15,682 bases of DNA from a virus. The position numbers and the translations under genes are program-made. The stretch spans positions 1-15,682 of IMG/VR virus record IMGVR_UViG_3300028534_000011, one strand, 5' to 3'. Of the stretch, positions 1-15,222 are shown piece after piece (within the stretch, counting starts at the first letter, position 1; every line of letters starts with the position of its first letter). The notes beneath the pieces are model-generated. The model saw only the letters and a list, made by a program, of their open reading frames with translations. It made no database searches and had not been told where the DNA came from.

Positions 1-118
1 AAAATTTTATAAAATTTCTAAAATTTCATCAGAAATAAATTCTGGTACACTTTAATATTCTGATATATAAAATTATATCAAAAATATTAAAATATACCAG
101 GGACCTCCAGAGAGGTCC
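1..118 (-). repeat. Regulatory cassette copy A (partial, cut by the window start): distal half with the GC-rich stem-loop
   Basis: Aligns with the cassette copies at 3017-3213, 6206-6392 and 11170-11369. Shared blocks: aaatttctaaaatttcatcaga, atatcaaaaatattaaaata, ggacctccagagaggtcc. Positions 1-35 are identical to 15648-15682. Confidence 0.8.
101..118 (-). terminator. GC-rich stem-loop (GGACCTC-TCTG-GAGGTCC on the transcribed strand) directly after the stop of the 119..481 gene. Putative terminator or RNA processing/stability element.
   Basis: Perfect 7-bp stem with a 4-nt loop, and the only GC-rich island in AT-rich DNA. It recurs at 6376-6391 and 11353-11368. The downstream U-tract is offset (CUGGUAUAUUUUAAUAUUUUU), so it is not a textbook intrinsic terminator. 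Confidence 0.45.
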
Positions 119-481
119 TCATACTCCCATTTCAAGTTTTTTCCATTCAATAAATAATTTAATGTCCCATCTGAAGCTTTCTATATTTTTAAGATGTTTT
201 TCTAAATATTCTAAATCGTTTTCAACTTTTTTTATTTTATATTTTAAATCAATATATTCTTTATCTTTTTCTATAAAATCTTTTATTTCATTATTTTTTA
301 AAGATATAGGAAAATCATTTTTATAATATAAATATTTTTCCATCCAGAGATTGTCTAATTTTTTGTAAAAATCCACCAATTCATTTCTTTTTTGTTTAAT
401 TTGAAATAAAACTTTTTCATATTCATTTGCAATTATTTTTAATTTATCTTTAATATTTTTTTCATCAAAACTGAAATCCAT
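119..481 (-). CDS. Small coiled-coil protein, tentatively a UvsY-like recombination mediator
   Basis: 120-aa ORF with RBS GGAGATTAAAATG; its start lies 1 nt after the uvsW-like stop. The C-terminal half (LYYKND...DKEYIDL...NIESFRWDIKLFIEWKKLEMG) parallels T4 UvsY (LDYYSG...DKDVLKV...AIKSRGFAIKHIQDMRAFEAG) as I recall it. uvsW and uvsY also lie close together in T4. Confidence 0.45.
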   Translation of the reverse strand: MDFSFDEKNIKDKLKIIANEYEKVLFQIKQKRNELVDFYKKLDNLWMEKYLYYKNDFPISLKNNEIKDFIEKDKEYIDLKYKIKKVENDLEYLEKHLKNIESFRWDIKLFIEWKKLEMGV

Positions 482-482
482 T

Positions 483-2105
483 TTAATCTCCTATTTTAAT
501 GTTTTTTTCTATAATAGGATATGCGTTTTGCATATAAAGATTTATTCTTTCATCTGCATGTTTTAGCATATAATTTTTTCTTTTTCTGCATGTACTAAAA
601 TCATCAACGTAATCAAAAATTTTTGTAATATTTTTGTCTTTGTGCTGTCTCATTCCTCTTCCAATACTCTGATTTAATCTAATAAATGATTTTGTGCTTG
701 AAACTAAATGTATATTATGTATTTTTTTAATATTTACTCCTGTTGACAATGTTCCATATGTAGCAATCAATATTCCACCATCTTGTAATTCAAGCATTTT
801 TCTTATTTCTTCTCTTTTATTTCCTTTTACGTCTCCTCTAATAAAAAACAAATTTAATTCATCTAAAACAATAATATTGTCTTTTCTTTCACAAAGAATG
901 TCTTTTTCTGATTGTACAATATAAATTTTGTCTTCTTTTATTTGCTTTATTTGATTTTTATAAACAAATTTATCTATATTTTCAGACAAATTTAATTTCT
1001 TTTTTATTATTCTAAAAAGTAATTCTTCACCATGCGAAATTTTATTATATAAAATAAGATTATTTTCTTTCTTCTCTGAAAGTTTTAAAGCTACATTTGC
1101 AATAAATTCATTTCTAGATTCTAATTCTTCAATAAACTTTACTTCACTTTGAAAAGAATTCATTTTTTTCCAAAATGTGTTGCAAATTTCTTTGTTGTAT
1201 TGAATAAAAAACATTATTACTTTAATAGGCGTTGCATATCCTAAATCTATTAATTCTTGTGGCGTAATTATTTTTTTAGGTTTTCCAAGGGTTGACAGTA
1301 AAGTCATTTTGTCAATTGTATTTTGTGGGAGTGTTCCTGTAAATCCCAATTTGTATTTTGCATTAATAGATGCTTTTATTATTTTTTCAAGATTTTCTGA
1401 TTTTGCTGTATGTGATTCATCTATTATTATAAAATCTAATTCTGGAAATAAATATAATGATTTTCTAAGACTTTGCCAAGTTGAAATTGTAAGAGGCTTA
1501 TCAAAATGTTTTTCTTTTCCTGAATATATTTTATGGACATACTCGTCTAAATTATTCCACCCATATTCTTTAAAATCGCTAAACATTTGTTCAACTAAAT
1601 TTACAGTAGGAACAATAAGAGCCCCTTTAAATTTGAGTTTGTCTAATAAATAACGTACTATTACATAAATCATAAATGATTTGCCTGATGATGTTGCTGA
1701 AAGTAATATTCCTCTTTTATTGTTTAATGCATATAAAATAGCATCAATTTGATAATCTCTTGGCTTAAAAGGAATTTTTAATTCTTCAATAAATTTTAAA
1801 ATTTCTTCTTTTGTAATATTGAATTTAAATTCATTTTCTTCATATGTGACATTATATCCCCATGATTTTAATTTGTCAATAATAAAATATGAAAGTCCCT
1901 TTGGAATAATTAATCCTGTTGGTGTTTGTGAATAAAATTTTTTCTTTCCATCCCACATACCTGCTCTAAATGAAGGCATAAATTGATAACCATCAACATA
2001 AATTGATAATGAATTCATTATTTTTATTTTTAAATCAAACCCCTCTTCTGTATCAGGAATTTCAATTACAGTATATGATTCATTTATATCTTTTAATTTT
2101 ATCAT
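483..2105 (-). CDS. uvsW: UvsW-like SF2 DNA helicase (RecG-like branch-specific helicase of T4-type phages)
   Basis: 540 aa. Walker A LLSATSSGKS, DExH box IIDESHTAKS, TGT motif, and C-terminal QSIGRGMR motif VI. The N-terminal YVDGYQFMPSFRAGMWDGKKKF matches T4 UvsW EADGYRFNPRFRYGNWDGRIRL. Collinear similarity runs along the whole length (ISTWQS/VGTWQT, SHGEEL/SHGKAI, ATYGTLSTGVNIKKIH/ASYGVFSTGISVKNLH). Confidence 0.85.
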   Translation of the reverse strand: MIKLKDINESYTVIEIPDTEEGFDLKIKIMNSLSIYVDGYQFMPSFRAGMWDGKKKFYSQTPTGLIIPKGLSYFIIDKLKSWGYNVTYEENEFKFNITKEEILKFIEELKIPFKPRDYQIDAILYALNNKRGILLSATSSGKSFMIYVIVRYLLDKLKFKGALIVPTVNLVEQMFSDFKEYGWNNLDEYVHKIYSGKEKHFDKPLTISTWQSLRKSLYLFPELDFIIIDESHTAKSENLEKIIKASINAKYKLGFTGTLPQNTIDKMTLLSTLGKPKKIITPQELIDLGYATPIKVIMFFIQYNKEICNTFWKKMNSFQSEVKFIEELESRNEFIANVALKLSEKKENNLILYNKISHGEELLFRIIKKKLNLSENIDKFVYKNQIKQIKEDKIYIVQSEKDILCERKDNIIVLDELNLFFIRGDVKGNKREEIRKMLELQDGGILIATYGTLSTGVNIKKIHNIHLVSSTKSFIRLNQSIGRGMRQHKDKNITKIFDYVDDFSTCRKRKNYMLKHADERINLYMQNAYPIIEKNIKIGD

Positions 2106-2107
2106 TT

Positions 2108-2791
2108 TTATTCCTTAAATTGTTCTACTTTAATACCACATTTTTTCATTAATTCTAATCCTGATGTTTCTCTGTACTCTTCTATGTACACAACTCTTTT
2201 TATGCCTGATTGAATTATCATTTTAGAGCATTCTGAACAAGGACTTAATGTTACGTAAAGAGTTGTTCCTTTTAATGGAATTCCTTCTTTTGCTGCAAAA
2301 AGAATAGCATTCGCTTCAGCATGAATGACTTTTGAATGATCAGTAATTAATTCTTTTTTAGTTTCAAAATCTCCTATTAATCTATAATTACCAGAATTAT
2401 CATTAGCATGATTAATAAATCCTATTTGATCGTGACATTTACTGCAATAAATTTTATTGCTTTTCAAGTCTTCGATAATATCTGCTTTACAACATTTGCT
2501 TACCAATTTTTCTTTTTCTTTTTCACAATCTAATTCTTTAGGAATTTGAATTATTCCTGTTCCTTTACATTTATAACAAACATTATAGTTTATTATTCCA
2601 ATTCCTTTGCATTCATCACATATTTTTTCTTCATATTCTATATAACCAGAAGGAGTCCCATTATATCCAATTGAAATAATTCTTGAATCTTTAGCTATTA
2701 CTGCTCCGACTTTATTTCTAATACATTTGCTCTGCTGAGCCCAAAGCTCAGCAGTTTTTAACATTGTTTTGTCAATTTGATATTTAGTCAT
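2108..2791 (-). CDS. cd: dCMP deaminase (T4 Cd-like) with an enlarged Cys-rich insertion
   Basis: 227 aa. VGAVIAKDSRIISIGYNGTPSG, IHAEANAILFAA and YVTLSPCSECSKMIIQSGIKRVVY match the zinc-deaminase HAE/PCxxC motifs and closely match T4 Cd. An ~100-aa insert between GYNG and HAE carries CDECKGIG...CYKCKGTG plus further Cys pairs. Confidence 0.9.
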   Translation of the reverse strand: MTKYQIDKTMLKTAELWAQQSKCIRNKVGAVIAKDSRIISIGYNGTPSGYIEYEEKICDECKGIGIINYNVCYKCKGTGIIQIPKELDCEKEKEKLVSKCCKADIIEDLKSNKIYCSKCHDQIGFINHANDNSGNYRLIGDFETKKELITDHSKVIHAEANAILFAAKEGIPLKGTTLYVTLSPCSECSKMIIQSGIKRVVYIEEYRETSGLELMKKCGIKVEQFKE

Positions 2792-2794
2792 TTT

Positions 2795-3016
2795 TTATCC
2801 TTTATATCCAATTTCATCTATTTCATTTTCGATTTCTTTTAGAAGTTCATCATGATTCAAAAAGAATTCAATTGTATTTGAAAACATTTTATCAAATTTA
2901 TCAATAAGGTAATCTTCATCTTCTTCATAGAAATAAGCTCTTTCCCATAATTCTTTGAATTTTGAAAAATTGATTCTATTATAAATGTAAAGTAGAACTT
3001 TTCTTGTTTTACTCAT
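2795..3016 (-). CDS. Hypothetical protein, first gene of the transcription unit
   Basis: 73-aa ORF. RBS AAAGGAGTTAAAATG lies directly downstream of the cassette promoter. No recognisable motif. Confidence 0.6.
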   Translation of the reverse strand: MSKTRKVLLYIYNRINFSKFKELWERAYFYEEDEDYLIDKFDKMFSNTIEFFLNHDELLKEIENEIDEIGYKG

Positions 3017-3213
3017 TTTAACTCCTTTTTGTTTTATTTACAGTAAAATTATAACATTTTTTCAAATAAATGTAAACAAAAATTAAATAAAATTTGTAAA
3101 ATTTTGTAAAATTTATAAAAATTCATCAGAGATGAATCCAGAGATGATTTCTATAAAAGACATATAAAACTATATTAAAATAATTTTTATATACCAGAAA
3201 CCTTCAGAGAGGA
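3017..3213 (-). repeat. Regulatory cassette copy B (complete; distal stem-loop degenerate)
   Basis: Same block order as copies C and D. The terminal hairpin is eroded to ccttcagagagg (3-bp stem). The second hairpin ATTCATC-AGA-GATGAAT at 3121-3137 is intact. Confidence 0.8.
3048..3076 (-). promoter_or_regulatory. Sigma70-type promoter: -35 TTTACA (3071-3076), 17-nt spacer, extended -10 TGTTATAAT (-10 at 3048-3053)
   Basis: Read directly on the minus strand: TTTACATTTATTTGAAAAAATGTTATAAT. About 30 nt upstream of the RBS/ATG at 3016. A/T-phased TTTACAAAATT repeats lie upstream. Confidence 0.75.
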
Positions 3214-3456
3214 TCAATTGAAAGGAGGAAGTATTTGATAGGAGTTTATTTTAAGTGAAGTATTTTTAGAAGAACAATTTAATATTATTTTCATTATATT
3301 ATTTTTTAAAATTATTTTCAATGTATATGGCAGACCTAAATGACTTAATATTTTATTGAATAAATTAATTTTAATATTTATTTCAAAATTAAATTCTTTT
3401 GCAACGTTTTCAACATCATTAAAATTTTTGATATTTAAAATTTTGTCAAATAACAT
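3214..3456 (-). CDS. Hypothetical protein
   Basis: 80-aa ORF, RBS AAAGGAGTTAAAATG, last gene of its unit. No motif recognised. Confidence 0.55.
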   Translation of the reverse strand: MLFDKILNIKNFNDVENVAKEFNFEINIKINLFNKILSHLGLPYTLKIILKNNIMKIILNCSSKNTSLKINSYQILPPFN

Positions 3457-3474
3457 TTTAACTCCTTTAAATTT

Positions 3475-3705
3475 TTATAAATATTTTAAATAAAATTCAG
3501 GAATAGCATCTAATTCTTCAACAATTTTCAAAGGTATAAAATTTATGTTTGCCACTTTTTCAGGAGAATTATATTTTAATTCTGATTTTATTTTTTTAAT
3601 CCAATTAATAACAGATAGAGTGTAATCTCCTTCTTTGTTTTTTATTTTTGCTAATTTGCAATAAATTTTATTAAGTTTTTTAATCATTAATGGATTTACG
3701 TTCAT
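3475..3705 (-). CDS. Hypothetical protein
   Basis: 76-aa ORF. Its start overlaps the GGDEF gene end by 26 nt. Weak RBS AAAGGCAGAAAATG. Confidence 0.5.
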   Translation of the reverse strand: MNVNPLMIKKLNKIYCKLAKIKNKEGDYTLSVINWIKKIKSELKYNSPEKVANINFIPLKIVEELDAIPEFYLKYL

Positions 3706-4144
3706 TTTCTGCCTTTGATTGAATTATTTTTTTATCTAATTTATTGAAAATTTTTCTAAAATCCATTTTTAAAGGATTGTATATTTCGTAAACATAATTA
3801 CCATATTTTTCTTTAATTGAAAATGGCTTTTTTGAGAAAATCAAAAATTCATCTCCACCTATTCTAAAAATTTCTGATTTTATATACTTTAATTCTTTTT
3901 TTAAATATTCAGAAAATTCTAAGATATATTCATTACCTTTTTCCCATCCATATTTTCTATTAATTTTATGTAAATTATTTAAATCAACTAAACAAACAAC
4001 ATAATCAGAATTTTCACTAGAAATGTAATTCAAAAAATCTTTTAATTTATATCTATTTCCAAAACCAGTTAAATCATCATGTTTTAATTTATGAATTTCT
4101 TCTTTTAATTCTATAATTTCTTTTTTTAATTTTTCACAATCCAT
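3680..4144 (-). CDS. Minimal GGDEF-domain protein (putative diguanylate cyclase) with a short N-terminal coiled coil
   Basis: 154 aa. Motifs: DDLTGFGNRY (the DxLTGLxNR entry motif), VDLNNLHKINRKYGWEKGNEYIL (metal-binding D/N region) and RIGGDEFLIF (intact GGDEF, nt 3845-3859). No RxxD I-site five residues upstream of GGDEF. RBS AAGGATAATAAAATG. Confidence 0.8.
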   Translation of the reverse strand: MDCEKLKKEIIELKEEIHKLKHDDLTGFGNRYKLKDFLNYISSENSDYVVCLVDLNNLHKINRKYGWEKGNEYILEFSEYLKKELKYIKSEIFRIGGDEFLIFSKKPFSIKEKYGNYVYEIYNPLKMDFRKIFNKLDKKIIQSKAENERKSIND

Positions 4145-4314
4145 TTTATTATCCTTACAATAAAATCTGAAACATCTATCATTCCAATTAAAACAAAAAT
4201 AGTCAAAATATCATAAGTAATATTTTTATCAATTTTAGCGATATAAATTACCAAAAAATAAAGAAATAAAAAAATGATTAATTTGTATATGAAATTAATG
4301 ATTATTTCTTTCAT
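4126..4314 (-). CDS. Small membrane protein (two predicted TM helices)
   Basis: 62 aa, hydrophobic runs IIFLFLYFLVIYIA and ILTIFVLIGMI. Its 3' end overlaps the GGDEF start by 19 nt. Confidence 0.6.
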   Translation of the reverse strand: MKEIIINFIYKLIIFLFLYFLVIYIAKIDKNITYDILTIFVLIGMIDVSDFIVRIIKWIVKN

Positions 4315-4400
4315 TTTATGTTCCTTAAAAAGTAAAATATTAATAAAATTAATATTACAACTGAATATATAATAATAAAAATAATATCTAGTAGTTCCAT
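4311..4400 (-). CDS. Unannotated 29-aa hydrophobic peptide (MELLDIIFIIIYSVVILILLIFYFLRNIK)
   Basis: Not in the supplied ORF track, which lists nothing under 62 aa. The ATG lies 1 nt after the upstream stop, with AAAAGGTTTAAAATG as RBS. Its TGA overlaps the next ATG (ATGA). It would form a single TM helix. Confidence 0.4.
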   Translation of the reverse strand: MELLDIIFIIIYSVVILILLIFYFLRNIK

Positions 4401-4401
4401 T

Positions 4402-4602
4402 TTAAACCTTTTCTCTTAAGATATATAGATTAGATAAATAATCAAAAAAATTTAATCCTGTACATTTTGAAATTTCTTTTATAAAATTTGCAGTAGATTG
4501 ATTATATAAATAATCTTCAAATTGTTCCCAATTTTCAAAATGTACATTAGTACATTCTTTTATTTGTTTTAAAATTTTTTGTCTAAATTCATGTATTGTC
4601 AT
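4402..4602 (-). CDS. Hypothetical protein
   Basis: 66-aa ORF with a 4-nt ATGA overlap with the upstream ThyX-like gene. Confidence 0.6.
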   Translation of the reverse strand: MTIHEFRQKILKQIKECTNVHFENWEQFEDYLYNQSTANFIKEISKCTGLNFFDYLSNLYILREKV

Positions 4603-5537
4603 TGTTTTCCCTCAAATAATAATTGTTTTATTCCTTCAACTGTTTTTTTAGTTTGTTCTTGAGTCCAATCTTTATAATATTCTGGAAATGCACTTCTTTG
4701 TAAACATAAATGTTCCCAAGTTGTGGGATCATTAATCCAACCTGCCATAAACCAAGTTTTGTATTTTAGTCCATAATGAAATCTTTGGTAAATTTCTTTT
4801 GGATACCCTAACTCTTTTAATATTTCATAAACTTCATTTGTAGAGAAATTATAAAATAAGTCTTTCTTCAACTCCTCTATATTTTGACTGTCCTGATATT
4901 CTAAGAATAATTCATATATATCAAATTCTAAACTTCTTTTTCCTGACCACTCTTTTTCTAAAATTTCTTTCATTCTATCAAATATGTCAGTAGGCAGCCA
5001 ATAATCAGTTTCCTCAACCACCCTTTCTGATATTGCTATTTTAGATAATGCTTGATGAGTATATAATTGATCAAATACAAAATGTGGTGCTTTGATTTTA
5101 ACAACTTTAAAGTCTTTTACCTCTTCTTCTGTATTAAAAGGCACATACTCAAATAATCCTGAATTGTATACTGCTCTAAAGTTAGTGCAAATATTATAAT
5201 TTTCATCTATGTAAGAATATCTTAGCAAATTATTAATTATAATTCTGTTGATATTACTTGTTAACATAGATAATTTTACTGGACAAAACTCTAATGCTCT
5301 GCTTGCATTTCTATGATCTTCTTTTGCTTCATTGATAGTATTTGGAGCTGCTTCTCTTAACAAATGTTCATATCTTTTTCTTGGGTTTGCTGAACTGTCT
5401 TTACCTCTGCTTATTGCCGCTATACTAGTTATAAAATCAATTCTTTTTTCTTTACTTAAATTTGCTTTTGATGAATCAATTAATTCTACATAACCAAGAT
5501 TATCTGGTAAATCTATATGTTTTAATACCTTTAGCAT
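4599..5537 (-). CDS. Divergent ThyX-like (flavin-dependent thymidylate synthase fold) protein with a non-canonical signature
   Basis: 312 aa. GYVELID...IAAISRG, and KAPHFVFDQLYTHQALSKIAISERV, are collinear with Thermotoga ThyX GFVELVD...AARVS and [25 protein letters not shown]. The later LCLQRSA aligns with LNLRADSHA. The RHR signature reads THQ (nt 5052-5060). Confidence 0.55.
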   Translation of the reverse strand: MLKVLKHIDLPDNLGYVELIDSSKANLSKEKRIDFITSIAAISRGKDSSANPRKRYEHLLREAAPNTINEAKEDHRNASRALEFCPVKLSMLTSNINRIIINNLLRYSYIDENYNICTNFRAVYNSGLFEYVPFNTEEEVKDFKVVKIKAPHFVFDQLYTHQALSKIAISERVVEETDYWLPTDIFDRMKEILEKEWSGKRSLEFDIYELFLEYQDSQNIEELKKDLFYNFSTNEVYEILKELGYPKEIYQRFHYGLKYKTWFMAGWINDPTTWEHLCLQRSAFPEYYKDWTQEQTKKTVEGIKQLLFEGKQ

Positions 5538-5538
5538 T

Positions 5539-5718
5539 TTAAACTCCTTCTTTTATTTTATAAGTCCATCTATTGAATTTTTCAATTTTTCCTTCTTTAA
5601 TTAATTTTTTAAGTGCATCCCTGATAATTGTTTTTTTTATTCCTAATATTTTTTCAAGTAAAGATACTCTAAAATATTCTACTTCTTTTGCAATTTTCAT
5701 AATTTCTTCTTCAAACAT
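5539..5718 (-). CDS. Unannotated 59-aa winged-helix/HTH-like small DNA-binding protein
   Basis: Not in the supplied track. Sequence: MFEEEIMKIAKEVEYFRVSLLEKILGIKKTIIRDALKKLIKEGKIEKFNRWTYKIKEGV. Strong RBS GGAGGAGTTAAATG. ATGTTTGA overlap with the kinase stop, and its stop lies 1 nt before the next ATG. The helix-turn-helix plus beta-wing pattern resembles small wHTH regulators. Confidence 0.55.
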   Translation of the reverse strand: MFEEEIMKIAKEVEYFRVSLLEKILGIKKTIIRDALKKLIKEGKIEKFNRWTYKIKEGV

Positions 5719-6205
5719 TTAACTCCTCCATTACTTTATTTATTTTTTCTTTTAATTTATTTAAATTTTTTTCTGTGTTGTCTATAATTATTTCATTCTC
5801 AACATCAAATTTTTCTGGATATTCTTCTTTAATGTTTTTATCAATAACGTGAATAAAAATCACATCATCGATTTCTTTTATTTTTTTGTATTCAATTTCA
5901 AATCTACAATCAGATATAATATTTATTTTTGTGACATCTAATTGCTTTATGATTGATTTTACCCAAAAATCTGGATATACTTTTTTTATTTCTTCACCCA
6001 GCCATATAAGATATTTTCTGTATTTTTTCTTATTTTTTTCTAATTCTTTACATGATATTTCTTTTATATTACAAATAATTTTTTTAATCAAAGAAGCAAA
6101 TGAATATCTATTTGGTTTAATTCCTTTATTTTTAAAATATTCTTCTATTAAATCAGCAACTGTATCTTTTCCAACTCTTTTCTCTCCATAAATAAGAATT
6201 GTCAT
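5711..6205 (-). CDS. Deoxynucleoside monophosphate kinase (T4 gp1 family)
   Basis: 164 aa. MTILIYGEKRVGKDTVADLI matches T4 gp1 MKLIFLSGVKRSGKDTTADFI. Also DFWVK/MYWVK and SDCRFEIE/PDTRQDHE. First gene after a cassette promoter. Confidence 0.7.
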   Translation of the reverse strand: MTILIYGEKRVGKDTVADLIEEYFKNKGIKPNRYSFASLIKKIICNIKEISCKELEKNKKKYRKYLIWLGEEIKKVYPDFWVKSIIKQLDVTKINIISDCRFEIEYKKIKEIDDVIFIHVIDKNIKEEYPEKFDVENEIIIDNTEKNLNKLKEKINKVMEELNV

Positions 6206-6236
6206 TTAAAATCCTTTTTAATTTGTTTACAATAAA

Positions 6237-6265
6237 ATTATAATATATTTTAAAATAGATGTAAA
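6237..6265 (-). promoter_or_regulatory. Sigma70-type promoter: -35 TTTACA (6260-6265), 17-nt spacer, -10 TATAAT (6237-6242)
   Basis: Minus strand reads TTTACATCTATTTTAAAATATATTATAAT. It is positioned upstream of the RBS and the ATG at 6205. Confidence 0.75.
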
Positions 6266-6375
6266 TAAAAATTAAAAGAAATTTATAAAATTTCTAAAAT
6301 TTCATCAGAAATGAATCCAGAGGTAATTTGTAAAAAAGATATATTTTTATATCAAAAATATTAAAATACATCAGA

Positions 6376-6391
6376 GACCTCCAGAGAGGTC
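6376..6391 (-). terminator. GC-rich stem-loop (GACCTC-TCTG-GAGGTC) just after the MazG-like stop codon
   Basis: 6-bp stem and 4-nt loop. Same element as 101-118 and 11353-11368. Confidence 0.45.
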
Positions 6392-6392
6392 C

Positions 6393-6914
6393 TTATTTAT
6401 ATTTTTTAATAATTTCTTGATATATAGGATCTGATTCTTTTATAAAATTTCCTTCAGGTGTAAGAAATCCTTTTCTATCTTTTATTTCATTATATGCGCA
6501 TTCTAATGCATAATTTGGATCAATATATTCAAATCTAGAATATCCAGTCAGATATTCATAACTTTTTTCAATTAAATCTGCTGCAGACTTGTAATCATGC
6601 TTGATGATTTTATCTCCTATATTACAAATATGTTCTGCAACTTCATTAAGAGAATTAAATTCTTTAGAATAATTAAAATTTATTTCTAAATCGTCTTCTA
6701 ATCTTAACAACTCACTTAAATTAATAAGAACAACTTGAACATCACCTATTGCATCAATCAATTTTTCTTTGTCTAACAATCTTAGTGCTTCATAAATTTC
6801 TGAAAATTCACCCATTAATTTTGCAAATTGAACTAATGGTGAAGCATTTGGAATTATTCCTCTATCTTTACTCCATTGAATCACTTTATTTCTTAATTCT
6901 TCATTCATTTTCAT
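6393..6914 (-). CDS. MazG-like all-alpha NTP pyrophosphohydrolase (candidate dCTPase, functional analogue of T4 gp56)
   Basis: 173 aa. FAKLMGEFSEIYEAL...AIGDVQVVLINLSE is the typical ExxE / GD helix pair of MazG/DCTPP1-type enzymes. The dCTPase role is inferred from context only. Confidence 0.65.
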   Translation of the reverse strand: MKMNEELRNKVIQWSKDRGIIPNASPLVQFAKLMGEFSEIYEALRLLDKEKLIDAIGDVQVVLINLSELLRLEDDLEINFNYSKEFNSLNEVAEHICNIGDKIIKHDYKSAADLIEKSYEYLTGYSRFEYIDPNYALECAYNEIKDRKGFLTPEGNFIKESDPIYQEIIKKYK

Positions 6915-7492
6915 TTCATCTCCTTTAATGTTTGTTTAATTTTATTTAATTCTTCTTTTGTATTAAAATATAAAGTTGATTTATTTGCTTTATATGCAAA
7001 AAAACCATTCATAATAACTAAATCAAGAAAATCTTCTTGATTGTTATTTAATTTTCTAATTTTAAAAATTGAATTATCTTGCCATCCTGTTTTATGTTTA
7101 GTATAACCAAAAATTTTGTTGTTTTTATCCATTTCAAATGAAACATATGCATTTATTCTATATGTTACAGTCATATAATTTATTTTAACAAAATCTGCTT
7201 TTAAAAATTCATCAATATTTGAATCTGAAAAAAACACGTCAGACCAACATATATTTATTTCTCCCAACATTTTATGTAATTTATAAACATCTTTGCCACT
7301 TCCTTTTTGAAAATCTCCAATTAAAAATTCTGATTTTAAATGTTTTATATCTTCATATATTTTAGGTGTTGTAACTATAATTGGAGTTATTCCAAAATTT
7401 TTAAAGACATTTTTATTCCATTCAAATGTTTCCAAAATTTTTGGACTTCCAAATCTGCTTGATTTTCCTGCTGCCATTATAAATATTTCCAT
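6911..7492 (-). CDS. Small GT-A fold nucleotidyltransferase (sugar-phosphate / MobA-CofC-like NTP transferase)
   Basis: 193 aa. The N-terminal IMAAGKSSRFGSPKILE matches the (L/A)AGxGxR(x)nPK signature of GlmU/IspD/MobA-type nucleotidyltransferases. 4-nt overlap with the MazG-like gene. Confidence 0.65.
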   Translation of the reverse strand: MEIFIMAAGKSSRFGSPKILETFEWNKNVFKNFGITPIIVTTPKIYEDIKHLKSEFLIGDFQKGSGKDVYKLHKMLGEINICWSDVFFSDSNIDEFLKADFVKINYMTVTYRINAYVSFEMDKNNKIFGYTKHKTGWQDNSIFKIRKLNNNQEDFLDLVIMNGFFAYKANKSTLYFNTKEELNKIKQTLKEMK

Positions 7493-7501
7493 TTTAACTC
7501 C

Positions 7502-9172
7502 TTATAAAATTGAATTGTCAATGAATTTTAAAATTGTATAAGTATCATAAGGACTTTTTACTTCTAAACACGTCATATTTTCAAACATTTCTTTGTCATT
7601 TCCATCTTTTTCATCAGCGATATAGATTGTTTTATCTAAATTCAAATAAATTTTATTTTTTATTTGTTTAATATTTTCATATTTATTTGTCATTTTACTC
7701 ATTATGTCAATAGTAGATACTCCTGCTTTTCTTATGTATATTTCATTTTTTTCTATTTCATCTTTAAACAATTCAATTAGATAATTATATAATACTTCTC
7801 TGTAATCATCATCTAAAAATCTTAAAGAAATAACAGAATCTGCTCTGTTTTCATATTTTGAAAAATTAAATTTTACTCTTTTAAGAGCATTAAAAATTTT
7901 ATTTTGATCTTTAATAACATTTAATTTTAAAATTATATTTCTTTTATAATCATAAACAGTATTTGCATAATTACAAAAATAATAATTAAATTTTCCTTTA
8001 ATTTCATTTATATCTTTACCTGTTACTAAAATTGTTTCGATAGGCAATTTTTCTACCAATTCAATGACTTTAAGTGATATTTCAATATCATTGATGTTTC
8101 TTGACATTAAAGTATCATCATAATCAATCATTAATGTTTGCAATTTTTTAGGATTTAATCCTTTTTCTTTAAAATATTCTTCTAGTATTTTATATGCTAA
8201 AAGATTTCCATCGTGTTTGTTTTCATAATATTCACTTTTAAAATTACAAACAATTTCATTGTCAACATTTAAATGAATATCTGAAAATACTTTATCAAAT
8301 TTAACATATTTTGAAATGATTTCAAACTGCTCTTTTTTTGAATATCCTTTCATATCTTTATCTGTGGAAACATTCATAATTAAATAAACTTCTTTATTTT
8401 TAATAGATTCATTAAATCCTTTTGTCTTATATGTCGGTATGAGTGATGAAAATTGAGTTCCAGCACTTAAAACAATTAAATCAGAATCTTTTATTATTTT
8501 TTTAGCTCTTTCAGATAAAATTGGCTGTTTTTCATTTCCATACTTGTCAATAAAAAATATGTCTACAATTCTATTATTAGGATTATTCCACTCTACAATT
8601 TTTCCTTCATCATAAATAATATAATTATTTTCAGTTTTTGCACATAAAAACAGAGATGTATCATCTGTCACAATAATATTATTAGGTAAATTTAAATATT
8701 TAGCCATTATATCAGCTGCTTTTTGTAATGAATAATTATTTAAATATGCTAAACCTCCATATATAATATTTGCCAAAGAAAAATCATCATATCTTATTTT
8801 TCTTGCAAGAGGCTGTTCAAAATAAACATTTACTGCTTCTATCAATTCATTTGGAAAATCTTTTATTAATTCTTTAATTTCTTTTTCTGGATTTTTATAA
8901 AATGAATATCTTTTATTTAAAATATTAAAAATTTTTTCAGATTCTTCTGTTTTAATTTCATTTCTATAAAGTTGATAATCAAGAAATTGTTGTTTTCTAA
9001 CGTCTGATGGACCAAGAATATTGCCATCAAAAACTTTTCTTATAAGACCAGTTGATTTACCATTGTCATATGCATTTACGAGCGTATATAAATTTACAAA
9101 AGGAATATATTTTGATAATCCTTTTTTCAATTCTACTGAACCTGTTCCACCTGATACAATAAGTACTTTCAT
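7502..9172 (-). CDS. Fusion protein: N-terminal CofD/YvcK family (UPF0052, 2-phospho-L-lactate transferase-like) plus C-terminal HAD-IIB phosphatase-like domain
   Basis: 556 aa. The N-terminal domain (about aa 1-335) has VLIVSGGTGSVELKKGL, NAYDNGKSTGLIRK...GPSDVRK and DLIVLSAGTQFSSLIPT...VYLIMNVSTDKDMKGYS, collinear with CofD/YvcK motifs. The C-terminal domain has LMIDYDDTL (HAD motif I DxDxT), LVTGKD (motif II) and ADEKDGNDKEMF (motif IV). Confidence 0.7.
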   Translation of the reverse strand: MKVLIVSGGTGSVELKKGLSKYIPFVNLYTLVNAYDNGKSTGLIRKVFDGNILGPSDVRKQQFLDYQLYRNEIKTEESEKIFNILNKRYSFYKNPEKEIKELIKDFPNELIEAVNVYFEQPLARKIRYDDFSLANIIYGGLAYLNNYSLQKAADIMAKYLNLPNNIIVTDDTSLFLCAKTENNYIIYDEGKIVEWNNPNNRIVDIFFIDKYGNEKQPILSERAKKIIKDSDLIVLSAGTQFSSLIPTYKTKGFNESIKNKEVYLIMNVSTDKDMKGYSKKEQFEIISKYVKFDKVFSDIHLNVDNEIVCNFKSEYYENKHDGNLLAYKILEEYFKEKGLNPKKLQTLMIDYDDTLMSRNINDIEISLKVIELVEKLPIETILVTGKDINEIKGKFNYYFCNYANTVYDYKRNIILKLNVIKDQNKIFNALKRVKFNFSKYENRADSVISLRFLDDDYREVLYNYLIELFKDEIEKNEIYIRKAGVSTIDIMSKMTNKYENIKQIKNKIYLNLDKTIYIADEKDGNDKEMFENMTCLEVKSPYDTYTILKFIDNSIL

Positions 9173-9174
9173 TT

Positions 9175-10263
9175 TTACTCCTTCAATAATTCTGATAATT
9201 TTTGTGAATATTCAATTGGATCAATTTTACAATCTTCATATTGCAAATCACAGATTTTTTTGCATAGTTCTTCAGATTCTTTGATTTTCTTTAATTTTTC
9301 TTGTACTTCATATTTATTTTGGACATATAACAATTTTTTAAGCTTTTCATTATTGAATGCTCTTTTTTCTGGATCTAATTTAATATCAATAAATGAAATA
9401 TTATTAGCCAAAACACCTTCATATATTCTTTGATTTAATGTATTTCCATAATATTTTTTATCTCCAATGTTTACAGTTGCTTTAAATTCATTCATTTTAT
9501 TCAAAAATTTTGAATATTCAACTGGTTTTTCAAATTTTGGTGGATTTCCATGAATTTCTGGATTATATTTCTTAAATTTATTTAATGTTATAGGTCCAAA
9601 AACTTCAACATCTAAATCTAATCCAAAATAATATTCTAGAATTTGTTCTTCTCTTTTGCCTCCTCTTAATGTTCCTCCATATCCTAAATCTTTTATTTTT
9701 TTAGACCAATCCCATTTTAATCTTTCATTTAATAATGGAAACTTATAAAACTCAAAAAATTTATAATCTCTTGGTTTGATTTGCTTTTCAATTTGTTTTT
9801 TAAATGGATCTATATTATAAGGCTGATGAATATAAACAATATCATCACGTGTAATTAAAATGTCTTCTTTTTTCCATTTTTTTCCCCAAGGTTTCTTCTC
9901 TACAATTGACCAAATTTGTTTCAAATGAAGCTCAGGATCACAATACATATAATAAACAGGTCCTTTATAACTGTTTATTATTTTATAATTTATAAGTTGA
10001 GTATAATCTTCTTGACCTCCAAAAAAATTTACATTACCATTAATGATAACAAGTGCATCAAAATTATTTTGTAAATTAAAAAATTCATCAATTTGATGCC
10101 CAATTGCAAAATCAATAGGAGGATCATTATTTAATATTTTTGTAAAATAATGAACTTCATTTGTAAATGAAAGAGTTTTAATAATAGAAAGGGCTTCACC
10201 TGAACCTCCTGAAGTCCCTTTGTTTGCAATTCTTGCACCTAATTTGATAACTGCTATTTTCAT
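9175..10263 (-). CDS. DNA beta-glucosyltransferase-like glycosyltransferase (T4 BGT family)
   Basis: 362 aa. Matches to T4 BGT: MKIAVIKLGARI / MKIAIINMGNNV; FDALVIINGNVNFFGG / YDRLIVVNSSINFFGG; YYMYCDPEL / YYLFTDIRL (catalytic Asp); YGGTLRGGKREE / YGGSFRSGQRES (UDP-binding Arg pair); NIGDKKY...NQRIYEGV / IIGDKNY...TLRVWETM. Confidence 0.8.
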   Translation of the reverse strand: MKIAVIKLGARIANKGTSGGSGEALSIIKTLSFTNEVHYFTKILNNDPPIDFAIGHQIDEFFNLQNNFDALVIINGNVNFFGGQEDYTQLINYKIINSYKGPVYYMYCDPELHLKQIWSIVEKKPWGKKWKKEDILITRDDIVYIHQPYNIDPFKKQIEKQIKPRDYKFFEFYKFPLLNERLKWDWSKKIKDLGYGGTLRGGKREEQILEYYFGLDLDVEVFGPITLNKFKKYNPEIHGNPPKFEKPVEYSKFLNKMNEFKATVNIGDKKYYGNTLNQRIYEGVLANNISFIDIKLDPEKRAFNNEKLKKLLYVQNKYEVQEKLKKIKESEELCKKICDLQYEDCKIDPIEYSQKLSELLKE

Positions 10264-10655
10264 TTGTTTTCCTTTAATTCATTTAATTTTTTATCAAGCT
10301 CTAAATTTATAATTTTCAAAGATTTATTCAGAATTGGAGATATTTTTTTGTCAATTTTTAATTCTTTGCCTGCATTATATCCTAAGTAAGAATAAAATAA
10401 ATATTTCTTAGGAATTAAAACAGCAATTAAAATTCCAATAATGACTGTTACTATAATTCCTTTGATGTATCCCATAAGATTTGATTTTATTTTTTTAATT
10501 TTTTCTATTTCTTCTTTTTCTTTACAACAATAATCTAAAACCATTCCATCATACAAAAATAATAAAACTAACATAGAACATCCACCAAAAATTAATATAT
10601 ATTGTAATTTTTCTAATACATCATAAAAATAAAGAAGAAGAAAAATTTTTTCCAT
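10260..10655 (-). CDS. Membrane protein (hypothetical)
   Basis: 131 aa. Hydrophobic segments YILIFGGCSMLVLLFLY and IIVTVIIGILIAVLI. 4-nt overlap with the BGT-like gene. Confidence 0.6.
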   Translation of the reverse strand: MEKIFLLLYFYDVLEKLQYILIFGGCSMLVLLFLYDGMVLDYCCKEKEEIEKIKKIKSNLMGYIKGIIVTVIIGILIAVLIPKKYLFYSYLGYNAGKELKIDKKISPILNKSLKIINLELDKKLNELKENK

Positions 10656-10656
10656 T

Positions 10657-11169
10657 TTAAACTCCTAATTCTTTTTTATAAAATTCTTTAAATTCATTCC
10701 AATAAATAGAATTTTTAATTAATTCTATATATTTTTTATCCCAATTATTAATGTTTGGCAATCCTTGGTGTTTTAATGAATCATCTATATCCCAAACAAG
10801 CATAGGAAAATTATATTTTCCTTCAAAATAATAATGAAAATATTTTTCATTAAATTTATTTGGAAATGTTTCGCATGCTTCTCTCAATTCTTCTTTGTTC
10901 CTAAACAAAATTACTTTATCTGTAAATAAATTTGAAAGTTTATTATGGTTAATGTAATCTTCAATTAAATTTTTATAGCAATAAAACATATCACCAACAT
11001 ATGTATAATAAAATTCATTTTCTGGAATATATAAAATTAATTTTATAGTACCATCTTCAATTTTTTCTTCTATGATTGAATCTTTTGAAATTAAAGTGAT
11101 AATTTCATCTAAATCATCTATATTTTTTGTAATTTTAAATCTTTCAAATAATTCTTTTAATCTTTCCAT
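10657..11169 (-). CDS. Hypothetical protein, first gene of its unit
   Basis: 170-aa ORF. RBS AAAGGAGTTAAAATG downstream of a cassette promoter. Confidence 0.6.
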   Translation of the reverse strand: MERLKELFERFKITKNIDDLDEIITLISKDSIIEEKIEDGTIKLILYIPENEFYYTYVGDMFYCYKNLIEDYINHNKLSNLFTDKVILFRNKEELREACETFPNKFNEKYFHYYFEGKYNFPMLVWDIDDSLKHQGLPNINNWDKKYIELIKNSIYWNEFKEFYKKELGV

Positions 11170-11201
11170 TTTAACTCCTTTTAATTTATTTTAACATTAA
11201 A

Positions 11202-11230
11202 ATTATAACACTTTTTCAAATAAATGTAAA
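11202..11230 (-). promoter_or_regulatory. Sigma70-type promoter: -35 TTTACA (11225-11230), 17-nt spacer, extended -10 TGTTATAAT (-10 at 11202-11207)
   Basis: Minus strand reads TTTACATTTATTTGAAAAAGTGTTATAAT, upstream of the RBS and the ATG at 11169. Confidence 0.75.
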
Positions 11231-11347
11231 TAAAAATTAAAAGAAATTTGTAAAATTTTATTAAATTTCTAAAATTTCATCAGAGATGAATCAAGAAATG
11301 ATTTCTATAAAAGATATATAAAAATATATCAAAATAATTTTTATTCA

Positions 11348-12337
11348 TCAGAGACCTCCAGAGAGGTCCAAAATATATTTGTAATTTCCATAATCATAAG
11401 ATATATAATATTCATTTTTTAGCATTATTTCTTTTTCAGAAAGATTTTCATCATAAAATTTTAAAAATCCTTCTTCATAGTATTTTTTAAGTTTATGTTT
11501 TTGAAATTTTTGCCTTGGATAAATTATTCCATTTTTTATATAAAAATAATTCGGTTTTGTTTCTCCTATCAATTTAAATTTATTTTTGTTATACGTATTT
11601 TCTTTATAAGTCCATCTTTTGTTTCCATAGCTTACCAAATATTTATATTCTTTTAACTCAGGAATATTTTTCAAAGAATATTTTAAAAGTTTACTAAATG
11701 CTCCAATAATAATTGTATACTTTTTAGAAGCAAATCTATATAATTCAAATTCATCTTTTTTGAATCTTGATTTTCCAAAAGTCATTACCGAAACTAATTC
11801 ATTATTATAATATAATCCTATTTTATATTTTGAAGGAATATATCCTTGCAAATGATTTTCTTCTAGAAAATTTGCAGTCTCTTTTGATGAAATTTCTTTA
11901 ATTATACAGTTTCTTGCATATATTTTTTGAATAAAAGGTGCTCTCATTTTAACAGCAATTTTAGATTTCCAGATATCTTTTTTTAAAGAATCTGTCCATT
12001 CATATTCTTTAATTGTAAATAAATGAATTCCTTTTTCTAGACATAAATTATATTTATTAATATATAAATCTTGGTGCCAATAATCTCCATCAAATTCTAT
12101 AGCAAAATTGTATTCTGGGATATAAATATCCAATTCATATGGAGATATGATTTTTCTTGTATTTGTTTGAATTTCTTTAGAATAAAATGATTTTATAAAA
12201 GAAACAATTTCAATTTCATATTGAGATTTGACATTTTTAAAATATAAAGGAATATCTATTTCAAATATTTTAAAAATTTTATGAATAGTTCTATAATTTA
12301 AATTAAAATCTTCACATATTTTTTGTGCATCAATCAT
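11348..12337 (-). CDS. Homing-endonuclease-like protein, C-terminal part (Vsr/PD-(D/E)XK-like nuclease core plus Hef-like C-terminal domain). The open frame continues without a start codon up to 12637.
   Basis: ELDIYIPEYNFAIEFDGDYWH is the typical Vsr/DUF559-type nuclease motif. I checked triplet by triplet that the frame has no stop from 12637 to 11348 (430 codons). There is no in-frame ATG/GTG/TTG upstream of 12337 and no RBS before that ATG. Confidence 0.55.
   Translation of the reverse strand: MIDAQKICEDFNLNYRTIHKIFKIFEIDIPLYFKNVKSQYEIEIVSFIKSFYSKEIQTNTRKIISPYELDIYIPEYNFAIEFDGDYWHQDLYINKYNLCLEKGIHLFTIKEYEWTDSLKKDIWKSKIAVKMRAPFIQKIYARNCIIKEISSKETANFLEENHLQGYIPSKYKIGLYYNNELVSVMTFGKSRFKKDEFELYRFASKKYTIIIGAFSKLLKYSLKNIPELKEYKYLVSYGNKRWTYKENTYNKNKFKLIGETKPNYFYIKNGIIYPRQKFQKHKLKKYYEEGFLKFYDENLSEKEIMLKNEYYISYDYGNYKYILDLSGGL
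11353..11368 (-). terminator. GC-rich stem-loop (GACCTC-TCTG-GAGGTC), here encoding the last codons (LDLSGGL) of the endonuclease ORF
   Basis: Identical core to 6376-6391. The stop codon TGA at 11348-11350 lies in the conserved tcatcagag flank. Confidence 0.4.
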
Positions 12338-12439
12338 ATCTAATTTTTCATCATAATAATTAAAAATAGCATAATAAATATGATTGTATTTTTTCTTAAA
12401 TGTTTCTTTTTCTTTATTAATTCTAATTAAATATGAATT

Positions 12440-12861
12440 ATTTACACCATATTTTTCTTTTAAAGAATTAATAATTTTATTTCTGACTATAGGAGAAGAA
12501 ATAGCATATTCAGTTCCATATTTTTCTAAATTTGTTTTCTTAACTTTTTCTTTTAAACTATCTGATTGTAAAGGAATTATACTTCCATATTTTTCTAAAT
12601 TTGTTTTTTTAATTTTTTCTCTAACTTCTTTAAGAACTTAATGACTATTCAACTCCATATCTTTTTAAATTAGTCTGTTTTATTTTTTCTTTAATTTTTT
12701 CAGATTTTAAAGGATTATCAACTCCATATTTTTCTAAATTTGTTTTCTTGATTTTTTCTTTAATTTTTTCTGATTTCATAGGATTATCAACACCATACCT
12801 CTCTTTTACTGTTTCTTTTACTTTTGCATATTTACATTCTTTTTTTCCACAAGTTTTACTG
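12440..12861 (-). repeat. Six tandem 69-bp (23-aa) coding repeats, consensus KxTNLEKYGVxNPxxSxxIKEKI
   Basis: The YG codon core (ccata on +) recurs at 12447, 12516, 12585, 12655, 12724 and 12793. Spacing is 69 nt throughout, except 70 nt between 12585 and 12655, which is exactly where the ORF breaks. Confidence 0.85.
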
Positions 12862-13121
12862 TAATTTTTACCATTAAATTTTAATTTTTTTTCTTTACAT
12901 ATCGGACAAATAGGCATATATAAAATTTTTTTAAATATACAATAATTTAATTCAGATTTGTTTTTGCACCAATAAAAAGCTTCAAAGGCTTTATCTAATA
13001 AAGAAGGATTATGTTGAAAAATTGTTTTAATACTATTTCTTGTTTTATTTTCAAAATATTCTATCAATTCAAGTCTTACATTATATTTTTCAGGAGAATC
13101 CTGAAATTTATTCTTTTTCAT
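12645..13121 (-). CDS. Homing-endonuclease-like protein, N-terminal part (CxxC...C...C zinc-finger region plus the first KYGV repeats)
   Basis: 158 aa with CPICKEKKLKF...CGKKEC followed by ERYGVDNPMKSEKIKEKIKKTNLEKYGVDNPLKSEKIKEKIKQTNLKRYGVE. It stops at a TAG, while the repeat array continues downstream in another frame. Its start overlaps the end of the hydroxymethylase gene by 14 nt. Confidence 0.55.
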   Translation of the reverse strand: MKKNKFQDSPEKYNVRLELIEYFENKTRNSIKTIFQHNPSLLDKAFEAFYWCKNKSELNYCIFKKILYMPICPICKEKKLKFNGKNYSKTCGKKECKYAKVKETVKERYGVDNPMKSEKIKEKIKKTNLEKYGVDNPLKSEKIKEKIKQTNLKRYGVE

Positions 13122-13803
13122 TTATAAACCTTTCAATATATTTGAAATGCCTTTCATAAACATGAAAACTTGAAGCAGTCCAAATAATAGATCCTAATTC
13201 TAATTCTGGATATGTTTTTTTAAGTTCACTGTATAGTTTATTTTGAACATATTGGGCCCAATATACATCATTTTGAAATCCAAAAACTGCATCATTACTT
13301 CTCATAACATAATGACTAATTAATTTATTGTCTCTAATAAAACATTGATTATACATCGTACAAATAAAATCACTCATTCCATTTTTGTTATATTCATAAT
13401 GCATACTAGGTCTATTATAAATCATAATAGCTCTTCTAGAATAAGGATTTCTTTTTAATTCTCTTATACAATTTTTAAATTGATCATAATTTTCTTTACT
13501 GAAAATAATCCAACCATAATTTGAATTTATAAATCCATCTTTATCTGAAACTTGTTTCCAAATCTCAGGAACTTTGCCTGGAATATCATAGACATTAAGA
13601 CTTTGACTTTCATACCATTCAATTTCTCTTTTTGCATAATCTATGTTTGTTTCTCTTATAATATATGGTTCATCAACTAAAAATGTAACTCCTATCAATT
13701 CAATCAATTTTGCACCTGTTTTATCAATGACAAAATCTTTATTTTTATATTTTTGAATAATCATATTTCTAATGTCTTTAATTTTAAGCATTTTTTCAAA
13801 CAT
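13108..13803 (-). CDS. Deoxycytidylate 5-hydroxymethyltransferase (T4 gp42-like dCMP hydroxymethylase)
   Basis: 231 aa, collinear with T4 gp42 at the same residue numbering. Matches: KDFVIDKTGAKLIELIG / KDFVVDKTGVKTIEIIG; REIEWY (Glu60); INSNYGW; NPYSRRAIMIYNRPSM; GMSDFICT (Cys148); MRSNDAVFGFQND (Asp179, the cytosine-specifying residue where thymidylate synthases have Asn). Confidence 0.9.
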   Translation of the reverse strand: MFEKMLKIKDIRNMIIQKYKNKDFVIDKTGAKLIELIGVTFLVDEPYIIRETNIDYAKREIEWYESQSLNVYDIPGKVPEIWKQVSDKDGFINSNYGWIIFSKENYDQFKNCIRELKRNPYSRRAIMIYNRPSMHYEYNKNGMSDFICTMYNQCFIRDNKLISHYVMRSNDAVFGFQNDVYWAQYVQNKLYSELKKTYPELELGSIIWTASSFHVYERHFKYIERFINEKE

Positions 13804-13814
13804 TTTTTCTCCTT

Positions 13815-14342: not shown

Positions 14343-14674
14343 TTTAATTCCTTTATTTCAATTTCATCTATAAAATTATCTATAAAATTTAACAATATAT
14401 TATATATGCCATTTACTTTTTTCACAATATAAAAATCATCTGTATTTTTCAAAATTTCATATCTTATTTTTCTGATTTCATTGAATTTTAATTTTTCTTC
14501 TATTTTTTTCACAATATAATCTCTTATTTTATCTTTTGCTAATATATCTGTATCTATAAAAGATGGAATTTCATTTTTTGAAAATACTATATTTAATTCA
14601 TCACTTTTTAATTCTCCATAATATTTTTTAAAATTATCATCAATTTCTTTTTTTATTTCTAATTTGATTTTCAT
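14339..14674 (-). CDS. Hypothetical protein
   Basis: 111-aa ORF with 4-nt overlaps on both sides. Confidence 0.6.
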   Translation of the reverse strand: MKIKLEIKKEIDDNFKKYYGELKSDELNIVFSKNEIPSFIDTDILAKDKIRDYIVKKIEEKLKFNEIRKIRYEILKNTDDFYIVKKVNGIYNILLNFIDNFIDEIEIKELK

Positions 14675-15213: not shown

Positions 15214-15222
15214 TTTAACTCC

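Follow-up and report, generated by a model that had tools for sequence, protein, structure and literature searches.

What does a bacteriophage gain from a gene whose product is little more than a GGDEF domain, and does that product work as a dinucleotide cyclase, alone or together with the small membrane proteins encoded beside it? This question is raised by a 15,682-nt stretch of viral DNA (IMG/VR record IMGVR_UViG_3300028534_000011, positions 1 to 15,682; hereafter the window), which encodes on its minus strand a 154-aa protein with a short GGDEF domain. The original prediction, made from the letters of the window, described this protein as a short coiled coil joined to a GGDEF domain, insensitive to feedback and translationally coupled to two tiny membrane proteins. 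We consider it probable, at roughly 60%, that the 154-aa protein is a constitutive, dimeric, minimal GGDEF dinucleotide cyclase that escapes product inhibition and serves host takeover. The parts of the gene on which this reading turns are the following, where ORF stands for open reading frame, AF2 for AlphaFold2 and dN/dS for the ratio of nonsynonymous to synonymous substitution rates.

3680..4144, minus strand: 154-aa stalk and short GGDEF protein, predicted to act as a minimal dinucleotide cyclase (ORF, Pfam, TIGR00254, AF2, Foldseek, dN/dS)
4085..4138, minus strand: codons of the N-terminal helix, residues 3-20, a predicted coiled-coil dimerisation stalk leading into DxLT (AF2, family heptads, structural matches)
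3932..3934, minus strand: codon of N71, at the site of the guanine-reading Asp (PleD D344 / GacA S348; family alignment, PMC6456294)
3845..3859, minus strand: codons of the active-site hairpin G96-G97-D98-E99-F100, with R94 before it (family alignment)
4152..4156, minus strand: AAGGA Shine-Dalgarno motif of the GGDEF gene, within the 3′ end of a 62-aa ORF (sequence; kept in a relative that lacks the 62-aa ORF)

The 154-aa ORF is present as predicted and scores above cutoff with both Pfam GGDEF (PF00990; E=1.2e-13, 51.6 bits against a cutoff of 23.8) and TIGR00254 (41.3 bits, cutoff 37.4). Because the C-terminal half of the protein is shortened, the Pfam alignment covers only model positions 2-90 of 161. 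All of the core motifs that had been named are in place, namely DDLTGFGNRY, the VDLNN...N region (VDLNNLHKIN) and RIGGDEF (R94-I-G96-G-D-E-F100). D54, N62 and K144 align with the metal-binding Asp, the base-contacting Asn and the phosphate-binding Lys of solved diguanylate cyclases (DGCs); the PleD counterparts are presumably D327, N335 and K442. The RxxD position reads Y87-I-K-S90, indicating that the inhibitory site (I-site) is absent, as had been claimed. The observation that GW and GN stand where GH and GD are usual, which had left product specificity undecided, also held: N71 occupies the base-reading position equivalent to PleD D344 and GacA S348, where a guanine-reading Asp would be expected, and therefore cyclic di-GMP (c-di-GMP) is not assured as the product of this protein. 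Compared with an 86%-identical orthologue, the gene has a dN/dS of 0.17, indicating purifying selection.

An AF2 model made with the 154-aa sequence alone was unusable, with a predicted local distance difference test (pLDDT) score of 52, and a model built on an alignment of the protein family described below was used instead (pLDDT 95.7). Its elements are a helix at residues 3-20, a helix at 31-40, a strand at 48-55, helices at 58-65 and 67-84, a hairpin at 90-94/99-104 that carries GGDEF, a loop at 105-114, a strand at 115-122 and a helix at 129-153. No helix lies between β3 and β4, and helix α3 is represented by the 10-residue loop 105-114. From the GGDEF hairpin to the strand that follows, canonical DGC structures are 17-25 residues longer, and the segment cut to a loop in the 154-aa protein corresponds to canonical helix α3 and the hairpin that follows it. 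A complete canonical domain of ~160 residues, including helix α3, is thus not present, yet the fold is recognised as GGDEF. The distance from GGDEF to the conserved Lys is 43 residues here, near 50 at the family median and about 69 in PleD.

Foldseek placed the model among GGDEF proteins throughout the top 50 PDB matches (TMq up to 0.77), several of which carry an N-terminal stalk (SadC, the LapD S-helix construct, PadC, SiaD, DgcB and the GCN4-WspR fusion), and the matches in BFVD included the annotated GGDEFs of Bacillus phages G and SP-15 and of Bordetella phage CN1. A profile of the family aligned end to end with solved DGCs (E ~1e-28), including the C-terminal 'ADxxLYxAK' helix that supplies the phosphate-binding Lys. 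Across the family, L, I, V, M or F is enriched at positions -20, -17, -13, -10 and -6 relative to the Asp of the invariant DxLT motif, with Y or L at -3; the enrichment at these stalk positions is 64-86%, versus ~10-30% elsewhere. The corresponding a/d residues of the 154-aa protein are C3, L6, I10, L13, I17 and L20. The alignment points to an a/d heptad pattern whose register relative to the catalytic domain is constant throughout the family. Because stalk DGCs dimerise through such a heptad arrangement, we infer that the 154-aa protein would form a constitutive dimer that takes no sensory input.

The family itself was found by HMMER and profile search, whereas a word-indexed protein search with the single sequence returned 4 proteins only. 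HMMER, run exhaustively over 1.84 billion representative proteins, yielded 12,387 GGDEF hits, and the best of these included, besides the query, proteins of 150-210 aa that matched over their full length. Profile search resolved ~50 clusters of 150-235-aa proteins with a stalk and a short GGDEF (113-175 bits), set apart from canonical multidomain GGDEFs, which reached at most 110 bits. Every member of the short-GGDEF family came from metagenomes. A pattern scan of IMG/VR located 86 viral loci, many on contigs of 50-235 kb with 20-40% GC. A scan of 185,579 cellular species genomes gave at least 507 hits, and the best 80 contained no full-length family member; these 80 were canonical GGDEFs, mostly aligned over residues 4-104. 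Going by these best hits, the short-GGDEF family looks restricted to viruses. A tblastn search of INPHARED with the 154-aa protein gave only weak matches to its N-terminal half. The statement that a cyclase is unusual in such a phage was overstated, given the GGDEF annotations in several cultured phages and the number of IMG/VR loci that hold the short family. We found no description of this family in the literature, coverage of which was incomplete, so an earlier account may exist.

In an alignment of 63 family members with a mean column identity of only ~20%, T26, D54, N62, G70 and G96-G-D-E-F100 are invariant (63/63), and D23, R94 and K144 are kept in 61-62 of the 63 (R94 and K144 in 61 each). 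None of the RxxD positions carries a conserved Arg or Asp across these members. The invariance of the catalytic residues in so divergent a family, together with the dN/dS of 0.17, suggests that catalysis is under selection. At the base-reading position 60 of the 63 have Asp and three have Asn, and a set of 48 distinct short GGDEFs drawn from viral loci includes 4 with Asn; the carriers of Asn are this phage, its closest relative and a few independent members, among them the loci L023 and L063. Two further IMG/VR loci (L016 and L031) encode 222-aa members with a one-residue insertion (G-G-D) at the same position. These insertions and the Asn variants suggest that the specificity pocket has been tinkered with repeatedly in phage versions of the domain.

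No gene is conserved next to the family and no effector recurs; the neighbours are mainly genes of replication and nucleotide metabolism. A Tad2-like gene (Thoeris anti-defence) lies near two of the family loci, an HD_5 gene (HD-GYP-type) near one and a NAMPT gene near one. At locus L008 (6001-7778) the family member lies two genes upstream of a Tad2-like gene and a stand-alone receiver-domain gene. Transmembrane proteins are encoded near 50 short-GGDEF loci at about the background frequency (241/1273 ORFs, 19%).

We next considered the type of phage. The window has a GC content of 20-25% and all of its genes are on the minus strand. It matches part of a 119-kb metagenomic contig at 99.97% identity, and this contig encodes UvsW, UvsY, gp32, a 5′-3′ exonuclease, dCMP deaminase and a deoxynucleoside monophosphate (dNMP) kinase, as well as T4 beta-glucosyltransferase-like and thymidylate-synthase-like genes. 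PHROG matches support the assignments of UvsW, UvsY, gp32 and the 5′-3′ exonuclease. With UvsW, UvsY, gp32 and the T4 beta-glucosyltransferase-like gene present, and with recombination and replication genes of T4 type on so large a contig, the label of T4-like phage that had been applied to this DNA is justified. The closest cultured relatives of its UvsW belong to T4-like phages of Campylobacter, at 36% identity. A megablast search of INPHARED with the whole window returned no DNA matches, no tRNA genes were found in the window, and a scan for promoters and terminators was uninformative in DNA of 20% GC (43 promoter-like sites versus 34 expected).

Taken together, these features allow a mechanism to be proposed for a feedback-blind cyclase. 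A coiled coil of three heptads, in register with DxLT, would pair two catalytic domains in a dimer that forms constitutively and without a sensor. Each half-site would be built from D54 (metal), N62 (base, sugar edge), R94, D98/E99 (metal, general base) and K144 (phosphates). The surface for product inhibition would be lost, with RxxD missing and α3 reduced to a 10-residue loop; in PleD, α3 is the helix that we take to bear the third I-site arginine, R390. Because RxxD and the helix of the third I-site arginine are both missing, product inhibition would not be expected, and the level of cyclic dinucleotide would rise after infection without feedback. The earlier description of a minimal, feedback-insensitive predicted cyclase fits a protein that has the complete motif set and lacks both RxxD and α3. 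For the family, with Asp at the base-reading site, the expected product would be c-di-GMP; the Asn of this phage would leave an adenine-containing product possible. On general grounds, the carboxamide of Asn could pair with the N6/N1 edge of adenine. More speculatively, the host would be pushed toward a sessile state with less motility and fewer surface appendages, which would favour superinfection exclusion, local spread or retention in a mat or biofilm.

Several points weigh against this account. Replacement of the guanine-reading Asp by N71 may weaken GTP binding, and the equivalent of PleD R446, the second phosphate-binding Arg, is not conserved in the family. The palm fold has two crossover helices. 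Helix α3 is one of them, and its predicted loss could impair folding or catalysis; a confident AF2 model does not equal activity. The ~20 kb available showed neither a c-di-GMP effector nor a phosphodiesterase, and no biochemical characterisation of any phage GGDEF was found in the literature searched. The sole clue to the host is the 36%-identical UvsW of Campylobacter phages, and because the clue is limited to this match the physiological role of the cyclase is speculative.

The Asn at position 71 raises the alternative of an altered specificity, in which the enzyme would make 3′,3′-cGAMP, cyclic di-AMP (c-di-AMP) or some other product than c-di-GMP and would thereby jam nucleotide-based immunity, pre-empt it or satisfy it, for instance through competition at CBASS effectors or by refilling the decoy nucleotides that guards such as Panoptes monitor. 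We regard this alternative as unlikely. N71 stands at the specificity position, where Ser gives promiscuous cGAMP synthesis, only with GGDEF and not with GGEEF (PMC6456294); GGDEF is the form found in 63 of 63 family members, the 154-aa protein included, and Asn recurs in separate members. Experiments on the Asn variant were not found in the literature searched, and the canonical Asp in ~92-95% of the family makes a c-di-GMP-based function more likely for the family as a whole. In Panoptes, the product of a small palm-domain cyclase gates an immune effector, and its authors foresee phage counter-measures (PMC12657218), but those products are 2′,3′-linked and come from mCpol rather than from GGDEF enzymes. 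Some members adjoin anti-defence-type genes (Tad2-like at two loci, NAMPT at one), though this association is sporadic, and the absence of any PADLOC match also argues against immune interference.

A non-catalytic or ligand-binding role is a similarly improbable explanation. The shortened palm would have lost cyclisation, and the domain would act as a dimer that binds GTP, other nucleoside triphosphates or proteins, for instance as a sink for an effector or for the partner of a host DGC. This would fit the Pfam coverage of 2-90/161, the missing α3, the replaced guanine-reading Asp and the unconserved R446 equivalent, and degenerate GGDEFs that are not cyclases are known (YybT, LapD, FimX) and occur among the weaker structural and profile matches. 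Those degenerate domains, however, have lost GG[DE]EF or metal ligands, whereas here all catalytic residues are invariant at ~20% mean identity; because they are invariant across so divergent a family, catalysis would be hard to dispense with. Binding of c-di-GMP as a ligand is further disfavoured by the absence of the I-site.

A broader conjecture joins the proposed cyclase to the specificity argument and is, in our estimate, quite unlikely. It holds that virus-restricted mini-cyclases of large phages, sensor-less and blind to feedback, commandeer the dinucleotide pool of the host, and that the Asp-to-Asn change at the base-reading position has retuned a few of them, the one in this phage included, to an adenine-containing product. 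This product would counter nucleotide-based immunity, for instance as a source or a mimic of the decoys that guards such as Panoptes monitor, or by jamming CBASS-type effectors.

We then asked if the predicted cyclase functions as part of a module with its small neighbours. The ORFs concerned are listed below; L001 and L002 are contigs of this phage itself, and L003, L004 and L005 are those of its closest related phage.

4126..4314, minus strand: 62-aa ORF with two predicted transmembrane segments, a variable accessory gene (ORF, hydropathy, Shine-Dalgarno motif)
4311..4400, minus strand: 29-aa ORF with a single transmembrane segment, in the same variable cassette (ORF, hydropathy, Shine-Dalgarno motif)
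4402..4602, minus strand: 66-aa soluble ORF, the first of the three-ORF cassette (ORF; only in L001 and L002)
4599..5537, minus strand: 312-aa gene, directly upstream of the GGDEF gene in the relative (72% identical in L003)
3475..3705, minus strand: 76-aa ORF that shares 26 nt with the GGDEF gene at the 3′ end of the latter (87% identical, with the same arrangement in L004 and L005)

The 62-aa ORF overlaps the start of the GGDEF gene by 19 nt, the 29-aa ORF is joined to the 62-aa ORF through an ATGA junction, and the 66-aa ORF overlaps the stop of the 312-aa ORF in the same way. By Kyte-Doolittle hydropathy in 19-residue windows, the 62-aa ORF has two hydrophobic segments (maximum 2.5) and the 29-aa ORF has one (maximum 3.2). 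The overlap, the junction and the membrane character of both ORFs were thus as first described. An AAGG-type Shine-Dalgarno motif lies 6-8 nt upstream of the ATGs of the 62-aa and 29-aa ORFs. Because such a motif precedes 24 of the 25 predicted gene starts in the window and only 10% of coding-strand ATGs, the two small ORFs are probably real genes. Searches of Pfam, PHROG and PADLOC with the 62-aa ORF returned no match.

In the closest relative, whose GGDEF protein is 86% identical, the order is the 312-aa homologue, a spacer of 83 nt and the GGDEF gene. Tblastn with the 66-, 29- and 62-aa ORFs found them only in L001 and L002 and not in L003-L005 or at any other family locus, the sole exception being the final 15 codons of the 62-aa ORF, which make up the conserved GGDEF leader, TAAGGAT ribosome-binding site included. 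Homology upstream of the GGDEF ATG in the relative spans ~25 nt only and includes that gene's own Shine-Dalgarno motif (TAAGGAT). By this comparison, the ~450-bp three-ORF cassette (4145-4600) is an indel flanked by two conserved genes. Its counterpart in L003 (1624-1705) is the 83-nt spacer, which contains a tandem AAATTTTAAGAATAT repeat, a case of small-gene gain or loss in a plastic region of a T4-like genome. Because the GGDEF gene keeps its own Shine-Dalgarno motif in a relative without the 62-aa ORF, it can apparently initiate alone. Of the translational coupling that had been proposed, then, the overlaps stand and the need for coupling does not: coupling to the 62-aa ORF is possible in this phage and would not be required.

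The 76-aa ORF, whose overlap with the GGDEF gene had gone unremarked, has a dN/dS of 0.15 compared with the relative. It was considered as a true conserved partner and rejected on the grounds that homologues of 74-76% identity follow dCMP deaminase on contigs of two related phages, L091 (5001-5231) and L092 (293-523), with no GGDEF gene nearby. The gene order of this region is shuffled among relatives. For the 312-aa protein, no match was found in Pfam, PHROGs, NCBIfam, PADLOC or PDB sequences, and a ThyX-like identity was unsupported by Pfam, PHROG, NCBIfam or PDB. Because the cassette is absent from the relative and homologues of the 76-aa ORF occur without a GGDEF gene, we read the GGDEF gene as an accessory gene that stands alone within a plastic region of early and nucleotide-metabolism genes, and the small transmembrane ORFs as unrelated accessory genes that lie upstream of it in this phage by chance. 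That the 62-aa and 29-aa membrane peptides form a translationally coupled, membrane-linked signalling or effector unit with the GGDEF protein is very improbable: the overlaps are real, the Shine-Dalgarno motifs make the small ORFs likely genes, and translation of the 62-aa ORF across the GGDEF ribosome-binding site makes some coupling of expression plausible in this phage, but the closest relative has the GGDEF gene with its own Shine-Dalgarno motif and without the cassette, the peptides have no homologues at any other family locus, transmembrane neighbours are not enriched across the 50 loci, and peptides of this size leave no room for a nucleotide-sensing domain like SAVED or PilZ. The membrane-peptide module of the original prediction was abandoned on these grounds.

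Other genes in the window showed features of separate interest. At 11348-13121 on the minus strand (1025-2797 of L001), the ENA contig has an intact gene for a 590-aa protein with DUF7487 repeats and a homing-endonuclease/Mom-like region, which a single indel in the window splits into ORFs of 158 and 329 aa in different frames. Over 14,145 nt the window departs from L001 at only 3 mismatches and 1 gap, and the split may reflect strain variation, a pseudogene or a misassembly in the KSEKIKEKIKKTNLEKYG repeat. The minus-strand segments 5711-10263 and 13108-14342 are dense in genes of the nucleotide and DNA-modification type, including thymidylate-synthase-like (231 aa), thymidylate-kinase-like, T4 beta-glucosyltransferase-like (362 aa) and CofD-like (556 aa) genes, a gene for a 193-aa protein, MazG and dNMP kinase. 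This gene set suggests that the phage DNA may contain a hypermodified base. The related contig L091 carries HMUDK and HMUD2 genes (5-hydroxymethyldeoxyuridine, 5-hmdU, kinase-type). In the 227-aa dCMP deaminase (2108-2791, minus strand), the Pfam domain is split by an insertion of ~100 residues that is rich in CxxC pairs and matches DnaJ CXXCXGXG and DUF7895 weakly, an unusual zinc-ribbon-like insert for a phage deaminase.

Phages that break down or sequester immune nucleotides are known, as are phages that steer host c-di-GMP indirectly. The value of the present finding lies in the apparently virus-restricted family of short stalk GGDEFs rather than in the gene overlaps at this locus. With ~125 catalytic residues, and naturally without sensors or either of the product-inhibition elements, the family is a compact test case for defining the minimal catalytic GGDEF unit, for asking what a lytic phage gains by imposing a second-messenger state on its host, and for testing whether Asn at the specificity position alters the product. 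It could also provide a small constitutive cyclase as a tool.

Among known systems, the 154-aa protein is closest to the stalk DGCs (WspR and its GCN4-zipper fusion 3i5c, DgcB 6ttr, SadC 4wxo, SiaD 7e6g, PadC 5llx and DgcR 6zxb), which are its best structural (TMq 0.67-0.77) and profile (E ~1e-28) matches. It shares with them a parallel helix that leads straight into DxLT and the palm, and the same catalytic residues; it differs in lacking an upstream sensor or receiver, the RxxD I-site, and α3 with the hairpin that follows, in having Asn for the guanine-reading Asp and a 43-residue gap between GGDEF and Lys, and in its viral origin. The GGDEFs of cultured phages (Bordetella CN1 and LK3, Bacillus G gp350, Bacillus SP-15 and Pseudomonas Yuavirus) are likewise phage-borne domains of the same fold, some of them equally small (152 aa in CN1, 183 aa in SP-15), but they are too dissimilar to the 154-aa protein to be matched by tblastn at E<=1e-3 in INPHARED. 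They have been merely annotated or loosely correlated with a biofilm phenotype (PMC8471281). Several of these phages are temperate, where the logic of a moron gene applies, whereas this one is T4-like.

In the Hypr GGDEFs (GacA and Bd0367), which make 3′,3′-cGAMP, a single position at the Watson-Crick face resets product specificity (PMC6456294). The 154-aa protein resembles them in having this Asp substituted together with GGDEF rather than GGEEF, and differs from them in having Asn instead of Ser or Thr and in lacking a receiver domain; with Asn at the position of GacA 348 it was rejected as a member of this group even though GGDEF is present. The mCpol enzyme OptS of Panoptes is also a very small stand-alone palm-domain cyclase with a membrane protein in its operon, and it makes cyclic dinucleotides constitutively (PMC12657218). 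Unlike the 154-aa protein, OptS is Cas10-like with GGDEF nearly absent, makes 2′,3′-linked products and is a bacterial defence gene with a 2TM-SAVED effector. A Panoptes-like module was rejected for the locus in the window, where the protein matched only GGDEF in Pfam (E<=0.1), with no PADLOC match and no OptS in the top 50 PDB matches, and where the transmembrane neighbours of 29 and 62 aa match no domain, are not conserved and include no SAVED partner. A precedent for the proposed effect comes from the phage YIP peptides, which raise host c-di-GMP via YfiN in the course of infection and are tied downstream to type IV pilus shutdown through a block induced by c-di-GMP (PMC8085984, PMC11461919). 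The YIP peptides act indirectly, by activating an enzyme of the host, whereas this phage would bring a cyclase of its own.

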